Below are positions 9,367-56,690 of a DNA stretch of 64,000 nucleotides, piece after piece; the stretch's first letter is position 1; each line of letters opens with the position of its first letter. A program made the translations under genes and the position numbers. The DNA comes from Escherichia coli. GTDB taxonomy: Bacteria > Pseudomonadota > Gammaproteobacteria > Enterobacterales > Enterobacteriaceae. The DNA is taken from assembly GCF_003334405.1 (NCBI RefSeq), contig NZ_QOWM01000005.1; one strand, written 5' to 3'. The notes below the pieces were generated by a model that saw only the letters and a program-made list of their open reading frames with translations, did not search any database and was not told the DNA's origin.

Positions 9367-9870
<504 letters not shown>

Positions 9871-9881
9871 CGAAGGGTAAA

Positions 9882-10664
9882 CTACCCACTAACGCTAAAC
9901 AACGCATACGTATTATTAAGCAACACTTCGGCAATCTCATCTTCTGGTTCCGGGCGCAACTCGCAAAGCACGTCAAACACCCGCACAGCCTGTTCCGGTC
10001 GGTTAGGCTGCCCCTGAAAGCCGTTGAGCGGCATATCCGGCGCGTCGGTTTCCAGCAACAACGATGCCAGCGGTAATTTTGCGATGACATCGCGGGTTTT
10101 ACTGGCGCGTGGATAGGTGATAGTACCGCCTACGCCGATTTTGTAGCCCAGCTGTACAAACCGCTCGGCCTGTTGCAGGCTGCCGGAAAAACCGTGAACC
10201 ACGCCAGTGCACGGTAAATCGTGACGTTTAAGATGCATCGCCAGTTTGTCGTGTGTACGCCGGGAATGAAGGATCACCGGCAGATCGTAGCGTTTCGCCA
10301 GTTTCAGCTGTTCGTCGAGTAACCACTGCTGCCTCTCAAATTGCGGATCGTCGCCGAAGAGATCCAGACCGATCTCCCCCACCGCCACCACCTTCGCCGG
10401 ACGCCTTTCCAGCGCCTGCTGTAGCTGATCAAGAGACACATCGCTATGTTTTTCCAACATCCCCGGATGCAACCCCAATGCGGCATACAGCGGTTGATAT
10501 TTTTCCGCTAACGCCTGCACGCGGGCAAAATTTTCCGCCTCTGTCGCCGGAACAATGATCTTGCCTACGCCCGCTTGTGCCGCGCGTTGCAGGCTGGCCT
10601 CTTCATCGCCACTAAACGGCGGGAAATCAAAATGGCAGTGGGTATCGATAAAACGGCAAATCAA
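9882..10664 (-). CDS. yjjV: TatD-family metal-dependent hydrolase/DNase
   Basis: 260-aa ORF MICRFIDTHCHFDFPPF, typical TatD N-terminus. Confidence 0.9.
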   Translation of the reverse strand: MICRFIDTHCHFDFPPFSGDEEASLQRAAQAGVGKIIVPATEAENFARVQALAEKYQPLYAALGLHPGMLEKHSDVSLDQLQQALERRPAKVVAVGEIGLDLFGDDPQFERQQWLLDEQLKLAKRYDLPVILHSRRTHDKLAMHLKRHDLPCTGVVHGFSGSLQQAERFVQLGYKIGVGGTITYPRASKTRDVIAKLPLASLLLETDAPDMPLNGFQGQPNRPEQAVRVFDVLCELRPEPEDEIAEVLLNNTYALFSVSG

Positions 10665-16444: not shown

Positions 16445-17476
16445 ATGTCTGCATTTACCCCGGCAAGTGAAGTCTTGCTGCGTCACAGTGATGATTTCGA
16501 ACAAAGCCGTATTCTGTTTGCCGGAGACTTACAGGATGACCTGCCCGCGCGTTTAGATACCGCGGCCAGCCGTGCTCATACCCAGCAATTCCACCACTGG
16601 CAGGTGTTAAGCCGCCAGATGGGGGATAACGCCCGTTTTAGTCTGGTCGCCACGGCGAATGATGTCGCAGATTGCGATACGCTGATTTACTACTGGCCGA
16701 AGAACAAACCGGAAGCCCAGTTCCAGTTGATGAATTTACTTTCTCTGCTGCCGGTGGGGACGGATATTTTTGTCGTTGGCGAGAACCGCAGCGGCGTGCG
16801 CAGCGCCGAGCAGATGCTGGCAGATTATGCGCCGTTGAATAAAGTCGACAGCGCTCGTCGCTGTGGCCTCTATTTTGGTCGTCTGGAAAAACAGCCAGTA
16901 TTTGATGCGGATAAATTCTGGGGCGAATACAGCGTCGATGGCCTGACGATCAAAACGCTGCCGGGCGTGTTTAGCCGCGACGGTCTGGATGTCGGTAGCC
17001 AGTTGCTGCTCTCGACGTTAACTCCGCACACGAAAGGTAAAGTGCTGGATGTCGGCTGTGGCGCGGGGGTGCTTTCAGTTGCCTTTGCGCGCCATTCACC
17101 GAAAATTCGTCTCACCTTGTGCGATGTCTCTGCCCCGGCGGTAGAAGCCAGCCGTGCGACGCTTGCGGCCAACGGTGTTGAAGGTGAAGTCTTTGCCAGC
17201 AACGTCTTTTCCGAGGTGAAAGGTCGTTTTGATATGATCATCTCCAACCCGCCGTTCCACGATGGGATGCAAACCAGCCTGGATGCGGCGCAAACGCTGA
17301 TTCGCGGCGCGGTGCGTCATCTTAATAGCGGCGGCGAGCTGCGAATTGTAGCGAACGCCTTCCTGCCTTATCCGGACGTGCTGGATGAGACATTTGGCTT
17401 CCATGAAGTGATTGCGCAAACCGGGCGTTTCAAGGTGTATCGCGCCATTATGACCCGCCAGGCGAAGAAAGGTTAA
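16445..17476 (+). CDS. rsmC: 16S rRNA m2G1207 methyltransferase
   Basis: 343-aa [31 protein letters not shown] with SAM-binding motif [12 protein letters not shown]. Confidence 0.95.
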
Positions 17477-17485
17477 GTATCCCGC

Positions 17486-17660
<175 letters not shown>

Positions 17661-17707
17661 CTGATGGACATTTTTCCAGCAATTACACCTCCGGCGATAA
17701 TTAACTA

Positions 17708-17735
17708 TTGACGAAAAGCTGAAAACCACTAGAAT
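17708..17735 (+). promoter_or_regulatory. sigma70 promoter of the tRNA-Leu gene (TTGACG - 16 bp - TAGAAT, GC-rich discriminator)
   Basis: hexamers at 17708-17713 and 17730-17735; gcgcctccg discriminator typical of stable-RNA promoters; about 40 bp upstream of the tRNA. Confidence 0.6.
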
Positions 17736-17776
17736 GCGCCTCCGTGGTAGCAATTCTTTTTAAGAATTGATGGTAT

Positions 17777-17863
17777 GCGAAGGTGGCGGAATTGGTAGAC
17801 GCGCTAGCTTCAGGTGTTAGTGTCCTTACGGACGTGGGGGTTCAAGTCCCCCCCCTCGCACCA
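17777..17863 (+). tRNA. tRNA-Leu (anticodon CAG), single copy
   Basis: 87-nt sequence gcgaaggtggcggaattggtagacgcg...ctcgcacca with encoded CCA end, long variable arm and anticodon loop cttCAGgt. Confidence 0.95.
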
Positions 17864-17901
17864 ATTATCTTTACTTCCTTTCTTGTTTCTTCCCTGTTTT
17901 G

Positions 17902-18138
17902 TCATCCCTGATTCAAATTCACTATCATCAGCATGATGCCAGCAATAAGCGCCAGGCACGATGGTAGCAAAATGTAATGCCGCAACTGTTTGTGATACAG
18001 CATCACAGGCGTCAATACTAATCCCATCAGAATGACAATCCGCCACTGATCCGGCGATAAATCCGCATACATCAGCCCTGCAATCAGCAATCCCGGCAGC
18101 AACACTCCCCAGCCACTGCCCAGCATACGTTGCAACAT
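17902..18138 (-). CDS. yjjZ: small Fur-regulon membrane protein YjjZ (78 aa)
   Basis: MLQRMLGSGWGVLLPGLLIAGLMYADLSPDQW from ATG at 18138; divergent from fhuF. Confidence 0.8.
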   Translation of the reverse strand: MLQRMLGSGWGVLLPGLLIAGLMYADLSPDQWRIVILMGLVLTPVMLYHKQLRHYILLPSCLALIAGIMLMIVNLNQG

Positions 18139-18154
18139 GGTTTCATCTCTTTCA

Positions 18155-18262
18155 TTGATAATGATAACCAATATCATATGATAATTTTTATCATTTGCAA
18201 GCCAGAGAAATCCCTTGCTATCGGGTAAACCTATCGCTAGGATTAGCAATCATTATCATTTA
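18155..18262. promoter_or_regulatory. cluster of Fur-box-like sites in the yjjZ-fhuF divergent promoter region
   Basis: gataatgataacc (18157-18169), atgataatttttatcatt (18178-18195), aatcattatcatt (18248-18260) resemble the GATAATGATAATCATTATC Fur consensus. Confidence 0.65.
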
Positions 18263-18278
18263 GATTACTATCCCGATT

Positions 18279-19067
18279 ATGGCCTATCGTTCCGCACCGC
18301 TCTATGAAGATATCATCTGGCGAACGCATCTCCAGCCACAGGATGCTGGGCTTGCACAAGCCGTACGTGCGACGATCGCCGAACATCGTGAACATTTGCT
18401 GGAGTTTATCCGTCTGGATGAACCCGCCCCGCTTCGCGCCATGACGCTGGCGCAATGGTCATCACCGAATACGCTAAGTTCCCTACTGGCGGTCTATTCC
18501 GATCATATCTACCGCAACCAACCAACGATGATCCGCGAGAACAAGCCGCTGATCTCACTGTGGGCACAATGGTATATCGGCCTGATGGTGCCACCATTAA
18601 TGCTGGCGCTGCTGACGCAGGAAAAAGCATTAGATGTGACGCCGGAACATTTCCACGTTGAGTTTCACGAAACCGGACGCGCCGCCTGTTTCTGGGTCGA
18701 TGTGTGTGAAGATAAAAACGCAACACTACATTCGCCGCAGCAGCGAATGGAAACGTTAATCAGCCAGGCGCTTGTTCCGGTTGTGCAGGCACTAGAAGCA
18801 ACGGGAGAGATTAACGGTAAACTTATCTGGAGCAATACCGGTTATTTGATCAACTGGTATCTGACTGAGATGAAACAGCTGCTCGGCGAGGCGACGGTTG
18901 AATCGCTGCGCCATGCCCTCTTTTTTGAGAAAACGCTCACGAACGGTGAAGATAATCCACTCTGGCGTACCGTGGTGCTGCGCGACGGCCTGCTGGTGCG
19001 CCGCACTTGCTGCCAGCGTTATCGCTTACCGGATGTGCAGCAATGTGGCGATTGTACGCTGAAATGA
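18279..19067 (+). CDS. fhuF: ferric-siderophore reductase FhuF (C-terminal 2Fe-2S Cys motif)
   Basis: 262-aa ORF MAYRSAPLYEDIIWRTHLQ ending CCQRYRLPDVQQCGDC. Confidence 0.95.
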   Translation: MAYRSAPLYEDIIWRTHLQPQDAGLAQAVRATIAEHREHLLEFIRLDEPAPLRAMTLAQWSSPNTLSSLLAVYSDHIYRNQPTMIRENKPLISLWAQWYIGLMVPPLMLALLTQEKALDVTPEHFHVEFHETGRAACFWVDVCEDKNATLHSPQQRMETLISQALVPVVQALEATGEINGKLIWSNTGYLINWYLTEMKQLLGEATVESLRHALFFEKTLTNGEDNPLWRTVVLRDGLLVRRTCCQRYRLPDVQQCGDCTLK

Positions 19068-19073
19068 AAGCAC

Positions 19074-19095
19074 TGCCGGGGAAGTAAACCCGGCA
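19074..19095. terminator. hairpin between convergent fhuF and bglJ (probable bidirectional terminator)
   Basis: tgccggg-gaagtaaa-cccggca. Confidence 0.5.
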
Positions 19096-19104
19096 TCATG
19101 CAAA

Positions 19105-19782
19105 TTAATAGGGATGCAACACATTACTTGCTTCGCAATGCCGCATACATAACAGAATATCTGCGGCCTCCAACAACCCTGCATCAGAACTGACGCCCAG
19201 TTTCGACATCACATTAAATTTATGTGCACGGATCGTTTTAATATTGCGTTTAAGCTGCTCGGCAATTTGTGTCATTGAGTAGCCACGCGACATAAAGCGC
19301 AATATTTCTCTCTCCGTCGGGCTTAGCGTCCGGCTTTGGTTAATGTACCACTGATTGTTCAGTCGGTCGGTCGCCTGACGTACACCATTTAATGACAAAA
19401 AGAGTTCCTGATGAAAAATCTCCAGCGTTGACGCTTTACTTAATACACCGTCCAGCGGTGATGGCGACAATGAACCGATCAGCCGAGCTTCAATATCATC
19501 ATCCGCAATAACTAAACGTCGGGTACGCGGAAACTTAATCGCCAGTTCAGTCAGGCAAGATAATCCCTCTCTGCGTTCACTTCTCATGGCAGAAAAAGAA
19601 AAAATGACCGCCGCAAACGAGATCCGCGACATGGCATCCTGAAATGACTCCTGACTGGTATAGGTATGGAGCTTATAAGGGTTACCTGCAAACTTTCTGA
19701 ATAAACTCTCAATACCGATACTGCTCATGACGCATTTTTCTATGAGTGCGACATTTCTCTTCTTAATTCGGCTGTGTTCCAT
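19105..19782 (-). CDS. bglJ: LuxR-family transcriptional regulator BglJ
   Basis: 225-aa ORF with C-terminal LuxR HTH; overlaps yjjQ 3' end by 43 bp. Confidence 0.9.
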
Positions 19783-20465
19783 TCTGCGGCATCTCCATAA
19801 ACAGAAGGCAAGTTAAGTTCTCTTGCACCCTGCGCGCTATTTATCCATGCATACATTTCAGCGTTGCTGTGAATTGCCAGTCGACGCATCGCACTGTTTT
19901 TTTGGGCGCTGATAGTTTTATTACTTTTCTTAAGCAATGAAGCTATCTGGTTGATGCCCCATCCTTTACCTAATAGCCGCAGTACCTTGCGCTCTGAAAG
20001 AGTGAGAATGACGGAGCGATAGCTAAAATCATGAGTTTCAGTCATTGCCGGAGAGGTCAGCATGGCGCTGATACGCTCTGCGTGCGTATTGCCGGAACGT
20101 ACGGTCTTGACCAGATTCTCAATGGGTTCACCATCAGACAATAACGTCGCCGTAGGGCACATGAGCAGTTCTACTGCCTGGGAATACCAGGAGCGTGACA
20201 CCATGAAAACCCAGTGAATTTCCCGATATTGTGAGATTAAAGAATAATAATGTTCACAAACAGAACGTGGATCTTCACTTTCACCGGCTAAATCAGCAAT
20301 GACTAATCCGGAACGACGTAATTGTAATAAGGTAAGGTCCTCCGCAGAGGCGCTGGATATTATTTCATATTCAGGGAAGTGAGTCCTCATGACCTCTTTT
20401 AACCCTGCTTGCATAACAGGTATTTTACTGATAACAATTCCATTTTTGCAGCATCCTGGCAACAT
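19740..20465 (-). CDS. yjjQ: LuxR-family transcriptional regulator YjjQ
   Basis: 241-aa [28 protein letters not shown]; AT-rich upstream region. Confidence 0.9.
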
Positions 20466-21083
20466 ATTTCCTCCACATCCACTGTCTAAAAATCATGATG
20501 GTTTATTCAGGATATTCATTCCTTAAATGTTTCCAGCAAATTAATAGATTAAGCGAATAAATTATCCTTAGCATTCACTTTCATATCAGCATACTCCTGC
20601 TGCACAACAACTCCACAGCATGTGTCAGAAGGTTAGCATCAAATGATAACCTGGTGAAATAGCCTGGAGACATTTAAAATATCTACATTAAGTTGTTAGA
20701 AATACTTAATGAAAAACAGAGTTCTCATTCATTTAATTTATAATTAACTGATATCCCTTCCCGCAGAATGCAAAATCACACAATCAATATTTGTTCAATA
20801 AAATCTGATAGTTTTAACTTGTAAAAATTAAAAAACGCGCCCAGTTATCTTTTATCCTGATTCGTAAAGGCTAAAGAATAAATTCATTATAGTGATAATA
20901 TTCATGTGATAATTTGTTTGCGGCGAGAGATAATTCCCTTTTTATCACCGAGCTTGTCCCGATAACCAGGATTAATCAGCGCAATTTTGATCTTAACCTA
21001 CCGCAAAACTACCGTGCTTCATGATACAAATGGATTCTCATTATCTGAACAATACGCAGCACGTCTATGACAAAGGGCGAGTT

Positions 21084-21854
21084 ATGCAAACTGAGCAACA
21101 GCGAGCCGTAACACGGCTTTGTATCCAGTGTGGATTATTTCTTTTGCAACATGGTGCGGAAAGCGCGTTGGTTGATGAGCTTTCCTCACGACTGGGTCGG
21201 GCGTTGGGGATGGACAGCGTCGAAAGTTCTATCTCTTCGAACGCCATAGTGCTGACAACCATTAAAGATGGGCAATGCCTGACATCGACACGTAAAAATC
21301 AAGATCGCGGCATTAATATGCATGTGGTGACTGAAGTCCAGCACATTGTGATTCTGGCGGAGCACCATCTGCTGGATTACAAAGGCGTAGAGAAACGATT
21401 TAGCCAAATTCAGCCATTACGTTACCCAAGATGGCTGGTAGCCTTAATGGTTGGCCTTTCCTGCGCCTGTTTCTGTAAACTCAATAAAGGTGGCTGGGAT
21501 GGTGCCGTCATCACCTTCTTTGCCAGTACGGCCGCGATGTATATCCGCCAGCTGCTGGCACAACGTCATCTTCATCCACAGATCAACTTTTGCCTTACCG
21601 CTTTCGCCGCCACCACCATTTCCGGATTGCTTTTGCAACTCCCTACTTTCAGCAATACCCCCACCATCGCGATGGCCGCCAGCGTTCTGCTGCTGGTGCC
21701 GGGCTTTCCGTTGATTAATGCCGTCGCCGATATGTTTAAAGGCCACATCAATACCGGACTGGCACGCTGGGCGATCGCCAGTCTGCTGACACTGGCTACC
21801 TGCGTCGGCGTGGTGATGGCACTGACGATTTGGGGGCTACGCGGATGGGTGTGA
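21084..21854 (+). CDS. yjjP: inner membrane protein YjjP (ThrE-like putative exporter component)
   Basis: 256-aa product from ATG 21084 ([17 protein letters not shown]); track ORF starts 21021. Confidence 0.85.
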
Positions 21855-22318
21855 TCGAGTTTCTGTTTACATTGGCGCAGGATATGATCCTCGCCGCCAT
21901 TCCAGCGGTCGGCTTTGCGATGGTGTTCAACGTTCCCGTTCGGGCGTTACGCTGGTGTGCGCTGCTTGGCGCGATTGGTCATGGTTCACGAATGATCTTA
22001 ATGACCAGCGGGCTGAATATTGAGTGGTCAACTTTTATGGCTTCTATGCTGGTCGGCACCATTGGTATTCAATGGTCGCGCTGGTATCTGGCGCATCCGA
22101 AAGTGTTTACCGTGGCGGCCGTTATCCCTATGTTCCCTGGCATATCGGCTTATACCGCAATGATTTCGGCGGTAAAAATCAGCCAGTTAGGTTACAGCGA
22201 GTCATTGATGATTACCCTGTTAACCAACTTTCTTACAGCTTCATCGATTGTTGGTGCGTTATCCATCGGTCTTTCCATTCCTGGATTATGGTTGTACCGC
22301 AAGCGCCCTCGCGTATAA
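21845..22318 (+). CDS. yjjB: inner membrane protein YjjB
   Basis: 157-aa hydrophobic product [26 protein letters not shown]; overlaps yjjP 3' end. Confidence 0.85.
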
Positions 22319-22425
22319 AATTGCCTCGCTTAAAGCACACGGATGAGAGACAGCCTCCTCTCCTCCATGTGTTACTATAAAAGTTATCTCCCTTCTCGTT
22401 CATCGTTCCATATTTGAGAAACAGT

Positions 22426-22965
22426 ATGTCTTCCAGAGTTTTGACCCCGGACGTCGTTGGTATTGACGCCCTGGTACACGATCACCAAACCGTTCTGGCA
22501 AAAGCTGAAGGCGGTGTGGTTGCCGTATTTGCTAACAATGCCCCGGCGTTTTATGCCGTCACGCCTGCACGCCTGGCTGAACTGCTGGCGCTGGAAGAAA
22601 AGCTGGCGCGTCCGGGAAGCGATGTCGCTCTGGACGATCAACTCTATCAGGAACCGCAAGCCGCTCCCGTTGCTGTACCCATGGGGAAATTCGCCATGTA
22701 TCCGGACTGGCAACCCGATGCCGACTTTATCCGCCTGGCGGCGCTATGGGGCGTGGCGCTAAGAGAGCCGGTGACCACCGAAGAACTGGCCTCATTCATT
22801 GCCTACTGGCAGGCGGAAGGTAAAGTCTTTCACCATGTACAGTGGCAACAAAAACTGGCGCGCAGCCTGCAAATCGGCCGTGCCAGCAACGGCGGACTGC
22901 CGAAACGAGATGTGAATACGGTCAGCGAACCTGACAGCCAAATTCCACCAGGATTCAGAGGGTAA
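22426..22965 (+). CDS. dnaT: primosomal protein DnaT
   Basis: 179-aa product [30 protein letters not shown]. Confidence 0.95.
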
Positions 22966-22967
22966 CG

Positions 22968-23705
22968 ATGAAAAACATTGGCGACCTGATGCAACGCCTG
23001 CAAAAAATGATGCCTGCCCATATCAAACCTGCGTTTAAAACGGGTGAAGAACTACTGGCCTGGCAGAAAGAACAAGGGGCGATCCGCTCCGCCGCTCTCG
23101 AACGTGAAAATCGGGCGATGAAAATGCAGCGCACCTTTAACCGCTCCGGTATTCGTCCACTGCATCAGAACTGCTCCTTTGAGAACTATCGCGTTGAGTG
23201 TGAAGGGCAGATGAATGCGTTAAGCAAAGCGCGCCAGTATGTCGAAGAGTTTGACGGCAACATCGCCAGCTTCATCTTTTCTGGTAAGCCAGGAACCGGC
23301 AAAAACCATCTGGCGGCGGCAATCTGCAACGAGCTGCTGCTACGCGGTAAATCCGTATTGATCATCACCGTGGCCGATATTATGTCGGCGATGAAAGATA
23401 CCTTCAGGAATAGCGGTACCAGCGAAGAACAACTGCTTAACGATCTGAGCAACGTTGATCTGCTGGTGATCGATGAGATCGGCGTGCAGACCGAATCGAA
23501 ATACGAAAAAGTGATCATCAACCAGATCGTCGATCGCCGCTCTTCTTCCAAACGCCCAACCGGGATGCTGACCAACAGTAATATGGAAGAGATGACCAAG
23601 TTGCTGGGCGAACGCGTGATGGACCGTATGCGCCTGGGTAACAGTTTGTGGGTGATCTTCAACTGGGATAGCTACCGTAGCCGTGTAACAGGTAAAGAGT
23701 ATTAA
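22968..23705 (+). CDS. dnaC: DNA replication protein DnaC (helicase loader)
   Basis: 245-aa ORF with Walker A GKPGTGKNHLAAAI; 2-nt gap after dnaT. Confidence 0.97.
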   Translation: MKNIGDLMQRLQKMMPAHIKPAFKTGEELLAWQKEQGAIRSAALERENRAMKMQRTFNRSGIRPLHQNCSFENYRVECEGQMNALSKARQYVEEFDGNIASFIFSGKPGTGKNHLAAAICNELLLRGKSVLIITVADIMSAMKDTFRNSGTSEEQLLNDLSNVDLLVIDEIGVQTESKYEKVIINQIVDRRSSSKRPTGMLTNSNMEEMTKLLGERVMDRMRLGNSLWVIFNWDSYRSRVTGKEY

Positions 23706-23750
23706 TCCCCGTTTCTGGCGGTATACTGCGACACAATTCCACCTTGAGTA

Positions 23751-24248
23751 ATGATGATGAAAACTGTTAAACATCTTCTGTGCTGTGCCATTGCCGCCAG
23801 CGCATTAATTTCCACCGGGGTGCATGCTGCGTCCTGGAAAGATGCGCTCTCCAGCGCCGCCAGCGAACTTGGCAACCAAAACAGCACGACACAGGAAGGC
23901 GGTTGGTCGCTCGCGTCATTAACTAACTTGCTTAGCAGCGGGAACCAGGCCTTAAGCGCAGATAACATGAACAACGCCGCAGGCATTCTGCAATACTGCG
24001 CGAAGCAAAAGCTGGCTTCGGTAACCGATGCCGAAAACATCAAGAATCAGGTGCTGGAAAAGCTGGGCCTGAACAGTGAAGAGCAAAAAGAAGACACCAA
24101 CTATCTGGACGGTATTCAGGGTTTGCTGAAAACCAAAGATGGTCAGCAACTCAATCTGGATAACATCGGAACGACTCCGCTGGCAGAAAAGGTGAAAACC
24201 AAAGCCTGCGATCTGGTGTTAAAGCAGGGGCTGAACTTCATTTCCTGA
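23751..24248 (+). CDS. yjjA: periplasmic protein YjjA (signal peptide)
   Basis: 165-aa ORF MMKTVKHLLCCAIAASALISTGVHA. Confidence 0.85.
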   Translation: MMMKTVKHLLCCAIAASALISTGVHAASWKDALSSAASELGNQNSTTQEGGWSLASLTNLLSSGNQALSADNMNNAAGILQYCAKQKLASVTDAENIKNQVLEKLGLNSEEQKEDTNYLDGIQGLLKTKDGQQLNLDNIGTTPLAEKVKTKACDLVLKQGLNFIS

Positions 24249-24501
24249 ACCGCGAAACGCCGCGTTTTAGCTGTTACCCGGCTGACGCGGCTCTCTCCTG
24301 CCCTTTTCCCTGCTCCTGGACGGTTTTCCCCCTGTTACACGGGAAGCGACCGCGATCAAAAAAGTCTGTTTATAAACTAATTCCTAACAACATCGCATTT
24401 TTTTGACACTAGAATTGCAGCAATATGGCGACGCCATTACATTGTGCTTCTCAAAAAGCTTAAACGTTGGCTAAACGGCCCGGTTTAGTGAGGATCGCCC
24501 G

Positions 24502-26793
24502 TTGTCAGAACTACTCTCTTTCGCCCTTTTTCTCGCCTCTGTGCTGATTTACGCATGGAAAGCGGGACGTAACACCTGGTGGTTTGCAGCCACATTAACG
24601 GTGCTGGGGCTATTTGTCGTTTTAAATATCACCCTGTTTGCCAGCGACTATTTTACTGGCGATGGTATTAACGACGCGGTTCTCTATACCTTAACCAACA
24701 GCCTGACCGGTGCTGGCGTCAGCAAATACATCCTGCCGGGTATCGGCATTGTGCTGGGGCTGACAGCGGTGTTCGGTGCGCTGGGCTGGATCCTGCGCCG
24801 TCGTCGTCATCATCCGCACCATTTTGGTTACAGCCTGCTTGCGCTCTTACTGGCGCTGGGTTCAGTGGATGCCAGCCCGGCATTTCGTCAGATAACGGAA
24901 CTGGTGAAATCCCAGTCACGCGACGGCGACCCGGACTTTGCGGCTTATTATAAAGAGCCGTCGAAAACTATCCCTGACCCGAAACTCAACCTGGTTTATA
25001 TCTACGGCGAAAGTCTCGAGCGAACCTATTTTGATAACGAAGCTTTCCCGGATCTCACGCCTGAACTGGGCGCGTTGAAAAATGAAGGCCTGGATTTCAG
25101 CCACACGCAGCAGCTGCCAGGAACGGATTACACGATTGCGGGCATGGTGGCTTCTCAGTGCGGCATACCGCTGTTTGCCCCCTTTGAAGGCAACGCCTCC
25201 GCCTCTGTCTCCAGCTTCTTCCCGCAGAACATCTGTCTGGGCGATATCCTGAAAAACTCGGGTTATCAGAACTATTTCGTGCAGGGCGCGAATCTGCGTT
25301 TTGCCGGTAAAGATGTGTTCCTGAAATCGCACGGCTTCGACCACTTATACGGCTCAGAAGAGCTGAAAAGCGTGGTGGCCGACCCGCACTATCGCAACGA
25401 CTGGGGATTCTACGACGATACCGTTCTCGATGAAGCGTGGAAAAAGTTTGAAGAGCTTTCCCGCTCAGGTCAGCGATTCTCACTGTTTACCCTGACGGTC
25501 GATACCCATCACCCGGATGGTTTTATCTCGCGCACCTGTAACCGCAAAAAATATGATTTTGACGGTAAGCCTAATCAGTCATTCAGCGCGGTAAGTTGCA
25601 GCCAGGAGAACATCGCGACGTTTATCAACAAAATCAAAGCGTCACCGTGGTTTAAAGATACCGTCATCGTCGTCTCTTCTGACCATTTAGCGATGAACAA
25701 CACGGCGTGGAAATACCTCAATAAGCAGGATCGCAATAACCTGTTTTTTGTCATTCGTGGCGACAAGCCGCAGCAAGAGACGCTGGCAGTGAAGCGTAAC
25801 ACGATGGATAACGGCGCGACGGTGCTGGACATTCTCGGTGGCGATAACTATCTCGGACTTGGTCGTAGCAGTTTATCCGGGCAGTCGATGTCGGAAATCT
25901 TCCTCAATATCAAAGAGAAAACATTGGCGTGGAAGCCAGATATCATCCGCCTGTGGAAATTCCCTAAAGAGATGAAAGAGTTCACCATCGACCAGCAGAA
26001 AAACATGATTGCCTTCTCGGGTAGCCATTTCCGTTTGCCGCTGCTGTTGCGGGTTTCAGACAAACGCGTGGAACCGCTGCCGGAAAGCGAATACTCAGCA
26101 CCGCTGCGTTTCCAGCTGGCCGATTTCGCTCCACGCGACAATTTCGTCTGGGTTGACCGTTGCTACAAGATGGCACAACTCTGGGCTCCGGAACTGGCAC
26201 TTTCCACCGACTGGTGTGTCTCGCAGGGGCAGCTTGGCGGTCAGCAAATTGTTCAGCATGTTGACAAAACAACATGGAAGGGCAAAACGGCATTTAAAGA
26301 TACGGTCATCGACATGGCGCGTTACAAAGGCAATGTCGATACGCTGAAGATTGTTGATAACGATATTCGCTACAAAGCCGACAGTTTCATCTTTAACGTC
26401 GCCGGTGCGCCAGAAGAGGTGAAACAGTTTAGCGGGATTTCCCGTCCGGAGTCGTGGGGCCGCTGGTCCAACGCGCAGCTGGGCGATGAAGTAAAAATCG
26501 AGTACAAGCATCCGCTGCCGAAGAAATTTGACCTGGTGATTACCGCCAAAGCATACGGCAATAACGCCAGCCGTCCTATTCCGGTACGCGTAGGCAATGA
26601 AGAACAAACTCTTGTGCTGGGCAATGAAGTGACCACCACCACACTGCATTTCGATAACCCAACCGATGCCGACACACTGGTAATTGTGCCGCCGGAACCT
26701 GTCTCAACCAACGAAGGGAATATCCTCGGACACTCGCCGCGTAAGCTCGGGATCGGCATGGTGGAAATTAAAGTGGTAGAACGTGAAGGGTAA
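24502..26793 (+). CDS. opgB: phosphoglycerol transferase I (OPG biosynthesis)
   Basis: 763-aa ORF starting at TTG ([22 protein letters not shown]); N-terminal TM helices plus sulfatase-like domain. Confidence 0.95.
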
Positions 26794-26804
26794 TTCCTGA
26801 CTGA

Positions 26805-26835
26805 TGTGTAGGTCGCATAAGGTGCGACCTACACA
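26805..26835. terminator. hairpin between convergent opgB and lgoD
   Basis: tgtgtaggtcgcataaggtgcgacctacaca perfect inverted repeat. Confidence 0.5.
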
Positions 26836-26929
26836 CCTTCTACGGCTTACAACACATTATTAAGAAACAAAAAAACAGCGCCCAACACTTCCCCGGACGC
26901 TGCATGGCAACTTTAATAATCTCGCCTTA

Positions 26930-27952
26930 TCAGAAAGTAATTACACCCTTAATCAAATCACGATTGTTAATCACATCGCGCTCGTAGGTTTCTGCCAGCG
27001 TGGCGAACGGATAGCGATGGGTTAACATCATGTCAGCAGTGATTTTCCCTTCCGCCATCAGTCGACCGACTTTAGCGAAATCTTCCGGCGTGGCGTTGCG
27101 GCTGCCCATCATCGTCGTTTCTTTTTTATGGAATTCCGGATCAGAGAACTGCAACTCACCTTTAAACAGGCCGACAAATACCACCGTGCCGCCGTGACGA
27201 ATCAGATTCACGGTGTTATTCATCGCATGTTGATTACCTGTCGCGTCGATCACTTTCTGCGCCAGCGAACCACCAAACTGCGCCCGCAGCTGCGCGTCAA
27301 AATCTTCGGCTGACGGGTCCAGCACGGGCAACTCCAGACGCGTTGCCACATGTTCACGGCGCGCCGGACTGGTATCCGCCACCACCACCTGTGCGCCATC
27401 GGCTTTAGCGATTGCCGCCGCGCCCAGACCGATTGGCCCCGCCCCGACCACCAGCACCTGCTCGCCGGGAGCAATGGCTGCGCGACGCACCGCATGAGCG
27501 CTAATAGCGAAAGGTTCAATCAATGCGGCCGCCTGCGGGTCAATACCGTCTGCGGGCAAAATGTTCGCCACCGGCACGCTCAAATACTCACTAAAACCGC
27601 CATCCTGATGCACGCCGATGACTGAAATTTTTTCACAGCAATTGGTACGACCGCTTTTACACGCTGGGCATTGCTGACAGGCAACATAAGGGATCACAGC
27701 AACTTGCTGACCATTTTTAAGATCAGCAATATTTTTACCCAGCCCAACAATCTCCCCACATATTTCATGGCCTAAAACCCGTGGATAACTAAAAAATGGT
27801 TGATGTCCACCCCAGGCATGAATATCGGTACCGCAAATCCCGACAGACTTAATTTTTATTAATGCTTCATTGTCACCCGGAATAGGTATCTCGCGTTGTT
27901 TCCAGACTAATTCTTTCGGCTGCTGGCAAATTAAAACATTCATCGTAGACAT
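26930..27952 (-). CDS. lgoD: L-galactonate 5-dehydrogenase (Zn-dependent alcohol dehydrogenase family)
   Basis: 340-aa product MSTMNVLICQQPKELVWKQREIPIPGDNEAL with GHEICGEIV zinc motif. Confidence 0.9.
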   Translation of the reverse strand: MSTMNVLICQQPKELVWKQREIPIPGDNEALIKIKSVGICGTDIHAWGGHQPFFSYPRVLGHEICGEIVGLGKNIADLKNGQQVAVIPYVACQQCPACKSGRTNCCEKISVIGVHQDGGFSEYLSVPVANILPADGIDPQAAALIEPFAISAHAVRRAAIAPGEQVLVVGAGPIGLGAAAIAKADGAQVVVADTSPARREHVATRLELPVLDPSAEDFDAQLRAQFGGSLAQKVIDATGNQHAMNNTVNLIRHGGTVVFVGLFKGELQFSDPEFHKKETTMMGSRNATPEDFAKVGRLMAEGKITADMMLTHRYPFATLAETYERDVINNRDLIKGVITF

Positions 27953-28081: not shown

Positions 28082-29276
<1,195 letters not shown>

Positions 29277-56570: not shown

Positions 56571-56690
56571 AGCCTGCCATTGGCAGGCTCTGTTCGGATT
56601 GTCGGTAAAGTGCGCTTTGTTTATGCCAGATGCGACGCTGACGCGTCTTATCTGGCCTACAAAGGGCTAACGTGCAGGTTTTAGCTTCAG
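56571..56690. repeat. terminator hairpin plus REP-like palindromes between gntP and fimH
   Basis: agcctgccattggcaggct hairpin, then gatgcgacgctgacgcgtcttatctggcctac. Confidence 0.6.

Follow-up and report, generated by a model that had tools for sequence, protein, structure and literature searches.

Genomic environment of the tRNA-Leu(CAG) gene

The window, i.e. the whole 64-kb stretch of DNA that was analysed, is part of the E. coli chromosome, and the 22 kb surrounding its tRNA gene are up to 99.4% identical to complete E. coli genomes. The gene order, yjjG-rimI-holD, rsmC, the tRNA, yjjZ, fhuF and bglJ, is that of annotated genomes, and both the open reading frames and the annotations place the tRNA gene at the position of the leuQPV locus, between rsmC and yjjZ/fhuF (Table 1). 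According to ARAGORN, this gene is the sole tRNA gene of the 64-kb window, an 87-nt tRNA-Leu whose cloverleaf displays the anticodon CAG and which is also recognized by the Rfam tRNA model RF00005 with 48.5 bits, compared to a gathering score of 29. The 3' CCA is encoded, the gene ending in …CGCACCA. Besides, the 20-mers at the two ends of the gene are each found at a single place in the window and never on the opposite strand, and a search with them detected no second copy, whole or partial, before yjjZ or elsewhere in the 64-kb window. A preliminary description of this DNA had pointed to a single 87-nt tRNA-Leu(CAG) gene with no further tRNA before yjjZ; ARAGORN (a count of one), Rfam and the 20-mer search all agree with it.

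The stable-RNA-type promoter that had been proposed upstream of the gene is indeed present, with its sigma-70 elements intact. It consists of a -35 hexamer TTGACG (17708-17713), a 16-nt spacer and a -10 hexamer TAGAAT (17730-17735), with 10 of the 12 hexamer positions matching the consensus, and the -10 hexamer is directly followed by the GC-rich discriminator GCGCCTCC (17736-17743). FIS and stringent control are associated with the leuQPV promoter, which is mentioned here as background and is not used as evidence. As shown by alignment, the window and K-12 do not differ between position 17659, located 49 nt before the -35 hexamer, and the tRNA 3' end, and the leader of the window is the leuQ leader of both K-12 and the three-copy genome TBE6. 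Downstream of the gene, the trailer (ATTATC…) matches the leuV trailer of K-12 as well as the sequence CCAAUUAUC given for leuV in PMC2190699.

The intergenic region between rsmC and the promoter contains a REP pair that is 33 nt longer than its K-12 counterpart and that includes an Rfam naRNA4 match on the minus strand (17555-17637); a similar copy is found inverted at 56623-56682. Further upstream, between yjjW and yjjV, a tandem array of 4.8 × 101-bp BIME/REP units (9377-9864) gives four to five Rfam naRNA4 (CssrE) matches. The yjjW-yjjV intergenic region measures 314 nt in the genome T16R versus 517 nt in TBE6, so that the copy number of this BIME array varies as well. On the other side of the tRNA, an IS5-family transposase gene (28228-29208, minus strand), ISKpn26-like according to the TBE6 annotation, lies between lgoD and lgoT, and the lgoR regulator gene is absent from the window and TBE6 but present in T16R, GF124.3 and Sakai.

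Table 1. Features of the window at and around the tRNA-Leu(CAG) gene
Feature	Position	Strand	Basis or remark
rsmC, 16S rRNA m2G1207 methyltransferase, upstream neighbour	16445..17476	+	343-aa ORF; annotation in matching genomes
REP/BIME elements, rsmC to tRNA promoter	17480..17640		K-12 alignment; Rfam naRNA4 match
Haplotype switch interval, TBE6-like on the left and T16R-like on the right	17578..17893		last left marker 17577, first right marker 17894
leuQ-operon promoter, -35 to discriminator	17708..17743	+	hexamer matches; identical in K-12
Region from discriminator to mature 5' end, containing the 5' leader	17744..17776	+	leuQ-type (…GAATTGATGGTAT)
tRNA-Leu(CAG), 87 nt	17777..17863	+	ARAGORN, Rfam, K-12 comparison
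leuV-type trailer ATTATCTTTACTTCC…, convergent with yjjZ	17864..17901	+	matches K-12 leuV trailer
T16R-like tract of ~8.5-9.1 kb in a TBE6-like frame	17894..26433		right end between 26433 and 27035
yjjZ (DUF1435), convergent downstream neighbour	17902..18138	-	coordinates from the GF124.3 annotation, 100% identical here; in-frame ORF
fhuF, siderophore-iron reductase	18279..19067	+	262-aa ORF; annotation

Comparison with the K-12 leuQPV operon

In K-12 MG1655 (NC_000913.3), the same site, rsmC - tRNA - yjjZ - fhuF, is occupied by leuQ, leuP and leuV (b4370, b4369 and b4368, respectively) in tandem, so that the preliminary description was correct in giving K-12 three near-identical tandem copies. 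The tRNA of the window is identical to K-12 leuQ and leuV over its 87 positions, and differs from leuP at position 48 only, where leuP carries the substitution C48T that distinguishes it from the other two genes. Instead of three tandem genes separated by spacers of 28 nt and 33-34 nt, the window possesses one gene: leuP (T48) is gone, and the leuQ-leuP spacer AAAACCACGTTGATATTGCTCGCACTGG and the leuP-leuV spacer AACGAGGCGATATCAAAAAAAGTAAGATGACTGT are both missing from the window.

The remaining gene combines the promoter and leader of leuQ with the trailer of leuV. What is missing corresponds to exactly one register from the start of leuQ to the start of leuV, 235-236 bp in length (236 bp in K-12 and TBE6, 235 bp in the genomes T16R and 26561). 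In this context, leuQ and leuV form perfect direct repeats of 89 nt, made of the 87 nt of the gene and one shared base on each side. From this comparison, the locus is probably the E. coli leuQPV operon in which a single gene is left of the tandem array of three tRNA-Leu(CAG) genes. As a side observation, the last copy of T16R (leuV, 9914-10000 of the T16R record) carries T48, the mark of leuP in K-12 and TBE6, which suggests that the tandem copies undergo gene conversion.

Distribution of the single-copy arrangement in E. coli

The contiguous single-copy arrangement of the window (leuQ leader, one tRNA, leuV trailer) is found in 481 of the 5426 complete E. coli genomes (8.9%), as counted with a 301-base junction query that covers the promoter, the tRNA and the trailer and that had to match in one contiguous place. 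In the same line, an evenly spaced sample of 60 records retrieved with the K-12 array as query contains 54 with three annotated tRNA-Leu genes and five with one. Two other counts are less informative. The presence of the K-12 array at ≥80% coverage in 5397 genomes was left out because joined pieces lift single-copy genomes to 88% coverage, which makes this threshold non-discriminating, and a wide query of 1801 bases undercounts, owing to REP variation and to the rules for joining pieces. Taken together, about 90% of E. coli genomes carry three copies at leuQPV, and the two-copy genomes that exist are few. Genome-wide, the 87-nt tRNA is matched 1 to 10 times per complete E. coli genome, the median being four.

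Many O157:H7 strains are among the single-copy genomes, together with the reference Sakai, in which the gene is annotated as leuQ (ECs_R0127). A single-copy leuQPV locus is hence a common, already known and annotated polymorphism, which reference genomes have displayed from O157:H7 Sakai onwards. The evolution of E. coli tRNA genes is reportedly the subject of work by Withers et al. (2006). Variation by plus or minus one copy was described in general terms by McDonald et al. 2015 (PMC4539685), whose main text does not mention leuQPV. By itself the present finding is of little weight, but the locus offers a small and convenient natural case of a tandem tRNA array whose copy number has changed recurrently.

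Like the window, the O157:H7 genomes (Sakai and dozens more complete genomes) have one tRNA-Leu(cag) gene between rsmC and yjjZ, but on another flanking haplotype. Over 2 kb, the flank of O157:H7 shares 97.5% identity with the window, whereas T16R and 26561, both three-copy, reach 99.9% over 5.9 kb of the right flank, which argues for an independent contraction in O157:H7; on these flank identities, the allele of the window and that of O157:H7 do not share common descent. A second single-copy genome, GF124.3 (NZ_CP172173.1), matches the window at 100% identity over 17690-19700, but about 20 SNPs separate the two over the final 570 bp of rsmC, and they diverge in the right flank past 24 kb. With respect to the window, the SNP patterns of GF124.3 (one copy) and of 26561 (three copies) coincide at every variable site between 16.9 and 28 kb. 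Since GF124.3 matches the three-copy 26561 throughout, its contraction is probably a separate event as well. Regarding the window itself, none of the 5426 complete genomes combines its flanks with one copy, from which its contraction appears to be private to this sequence. On the basis of these flanking sequences, at least three contractions would have taken place, one each in O157:H7, GF124.3 and the window sequence.

Haplotype mosaic around the tRNA gene and proposed origin of the probable contraction

The tRNA gene lies at a boundary between two haplotypes. When compared to TBE6, the window shows three differences over the 9865 bp that precede the tRNA on the left, and 134 over the 12 kb that follow. 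The SNP table indicates that it is of the TBE6 type up to 17577 and of the T16R type from 17894 to at least 26433, with about six differences from T16R in 9 kb, and that TBE6-like sequence (at most three differences per 10 kb) covers both 8.0-17.58 kb and 27.0-37.7 kb. A T16R-like tract is thus inserted in a TBE6-like frame, and the invariant interval of 316 bp in which the haplotype switches on the left side holds the promoter and the tRNA. On either side, the nearest haplotype (TBE6 to the left, T16R to the right) is three-copy. A chimeric assembly switching between strains at repeats is unlikely as an origin of this mosaic, the right end of the tract (26433-27035) being located inside lgoD, where there is no repeat.

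Homologous recombination or replication slippage between the 89-nt repeats of leuQ and leuV would lead to the loss of one register. Given the three-copy parents on both sides and the switch within the 316-bp tRNA interval, unequal homologous recombination is the likely cause of the contraction. The most economical single event would be an out-of-register crossover between leuQ and leuV at the end of the imported ~9-kb tract. In its most specific form, this proposal states that the inter-strain event that imported the T16R-like tract also made the contraction, by pairing donor leuV with recipient leuQ, which we put forward as a tentative possibility. An unrelated intrachromosomal deletion between the 89-nt repeats, either RecA-dependent or by slippage, is nearly as likely as the out-of-register crossover at the tract end. 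Haplotype switches are spaced at about one per 8-10 kb, and at this density the chance that a boundary falls within the tRNA interval by coincidence is estimated at roughly 5-7%; the location of the junction at the array could also simply reflect an invariant stretch that is a favoured site for crossovers. If contraction by inter-strain exchange were general, the dosage of tRNA genes in E. coli would repeatedly change at the places where homologous-recombination tracts end. If true, the repeated independent drops from four to two (O157:H7, GF124.3, the strain of the window and others) may have been selected in slow-growth niches rather than being neutral.

Alternatively, homologous recombination with a donor resembling GF124.3, itself single-copy, may have brought in the single-copy allele ready-made. 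Such an import would account for the fact that GF124.3 has one copy, is 100% identical to the window over the 2 kb mentioned above, and stays nearly identical to about 24 kb. It nevertheless appears unlikely, as the window follows the three-copy T16R at 24017-24113 and 25326-26433, also matches T16R at 19240, and shares no SNP with GF124.3 alone. For the same reasons, i.e. the T16R type beyond 24 kb and the lack of a shared private SNP, the 100% match to GF124.3 was dropped as a proof that a real allele had been inherited. Ready-made import is in any case a sub-variant of contraction, the copy number being real in both.

Possible assembly collapse, and ancestral state

The preliminary description had left two alternatives for the single gene, contraction by recombination between repeats or collapse of the repeats during assembly, and the pair was well chosen: the leuQ leader, the leuV trailer and the 235-236 missing bp fit either. 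In the case of a collapse, the strain would have three (or two) copies, and the assembler would have crossed the 87-89-nt repeat once, dropping the two short unique spacers. The product would be exactly the leuQ-leader/leuV-trailer sequence that is observed. In addition, the nearest haplotypes on both sides have three copies, and none of the 5426 complete genomes combines the flanks of the window with one copy, the best match reaching 98.8% over 1801 bases. Against these points, finished genomes frequently carry genuine single-copy alleles (8.9% overall, Sakai among them), and such alleles appear sporadically on three-copy backgrounds, as illustrated by GF124.3 versus 26561. Furthermore, the contig is unbroken across the IS5-family element and the 4.8 × 101-bp BIME array described above, which suggests a long-read or finished assembly, and assemblies of this kind do not collapse a 323-bp array. 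An assembly artefact is consequently quite unlikely in our view, and a real contraction is strongly favoured. The share of 481 in 5426 genomes and the case of Sakai therefore make the contraction the likelier of the two alternatives, and an unremarkable one. More generally, a one-copy call at this locus should not by default be regarded as an assembly error, given that a single copy is found in about 9% of the finished genomes of E. coli.

As regards the direction of the change, a junction scan with one genome per species of Enterobacteriaceae detected two tandem junctions, equivalent to three copies, in Citrobacter, Enterobacter, Klebsiella, Kluyvera, Leclercia, Pluralibacter, Salmonella enterica subsp. 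arizonae and the E. coli representative. Since three-copy arrays are this widespread in the family, three copies are the ancestral state and one the derived state. The converse reading, in which one copy is ancestral and K-12 and its relatives grew to three, draws on the bare copy-number difference and nothing more, and is rejected as exceedingly improbable in view of the many three-copy genera, the three-copy E. coli species representative, the ~90% of E. coli with three copies, and the three-copy state of the nearest relatives of the window on both flanks. In the same scan, a lone tandem tRNA-Leu(CAG) junction was present in E. albertii NBRC 107761 (type strain) and in Escherichia sp. ESNIH1; the copy number of the array, or the sequence of its junctions, may vary in these other species too.

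Expression and gene dosage

Since the promoter, leader, tRNA and trailer are all intact, the gene of the window should be expressed as a monocistronic precursor. The leuQPV operon of K-12 is processed by RNase P, and the leuV trailer acts there as an unstructured Rho-dependent terminator (Mohanty and Kushner, PMC2190699). No intrinsic terminator was found on the plus strand after the tRNA of the window, and its trailer is predicted, as for K-12 leuV, to be a region of Rho-dependent termination. By analogy with K-12 (PMC2190699), the 5' end would be made by RNase P, through removal of the leader, and the 3' end by exonucleolytic trimming. Unlike in K-12, the internal separation of tRNAs by RNase P would not be needed with a monocistronic transcript.

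The tRNA-Leu(CAG) reads CUG, the most used codon of E. coli, and belongs to the most abundant tRNAs. Besides leuQ, leuP and leuV, leuT is the fourth gene for this tRNA (tRNA-Leu1) in K-12; leuT lies outside the window. Genome-wide, two matches to the tRNA are found in GF124.3 and four in K-12. We infer a tRNA-Leu(CAG) gene dosage of two instead of four for the strain of the window, provided that leuT is present elsewhere in its genome.

A related reduction was engineered by Raval et al. 2023 (PMC9981150), who deleted leuVPQ in MG1655. Deletions of multi-copy tRNA genes were found to be costly in rich media and beneficial in poor ones, and the copies that remained compensated only in part (PMC9981150). 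The engineered deletion lowers the dosage of tRNA-Leu(CAG) at the same locus as in the window, but it left leuT as the only gene for this tRNA, whereas the window retains one copy that is predicted to be expressed. As one copy is kept, the loss of two genes should act in the same direction as the leuVPQ deletion, with a milder effect. By this analogy, the dosage of the window suggests a cost to fast growth in rich medium and a neutral or beneficial effect in poor medium. A natural halving from four to two could in this way slightly lower the maximal growth rate in rich conditions and cut the maintenance cost in poor ones (PMC9981150).

The genome-wide number of tRNA-Leu(CAG) genes also varies outside leuQPV. 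The O157:H7 genomes (e.g. NZ_AP018488.1 and NZ_CP038412.1) contain three genome-wide matches to the 87-nt tRNA, versus two in GF124.3; with one copy between rsmC and yjjZ, they therefore carry an extra tRNA-Leu(CAG) copy elsewhere. Finally, eight matches in total among the complete genomes lie on plasmids; an exact copy is located at 248292-248380 of the 294-kb plasmid NZ_CP170379.1 of strain 1428_w1_hybrid, the chromosome of which carries three tRNA-Leu(CAG) matches.
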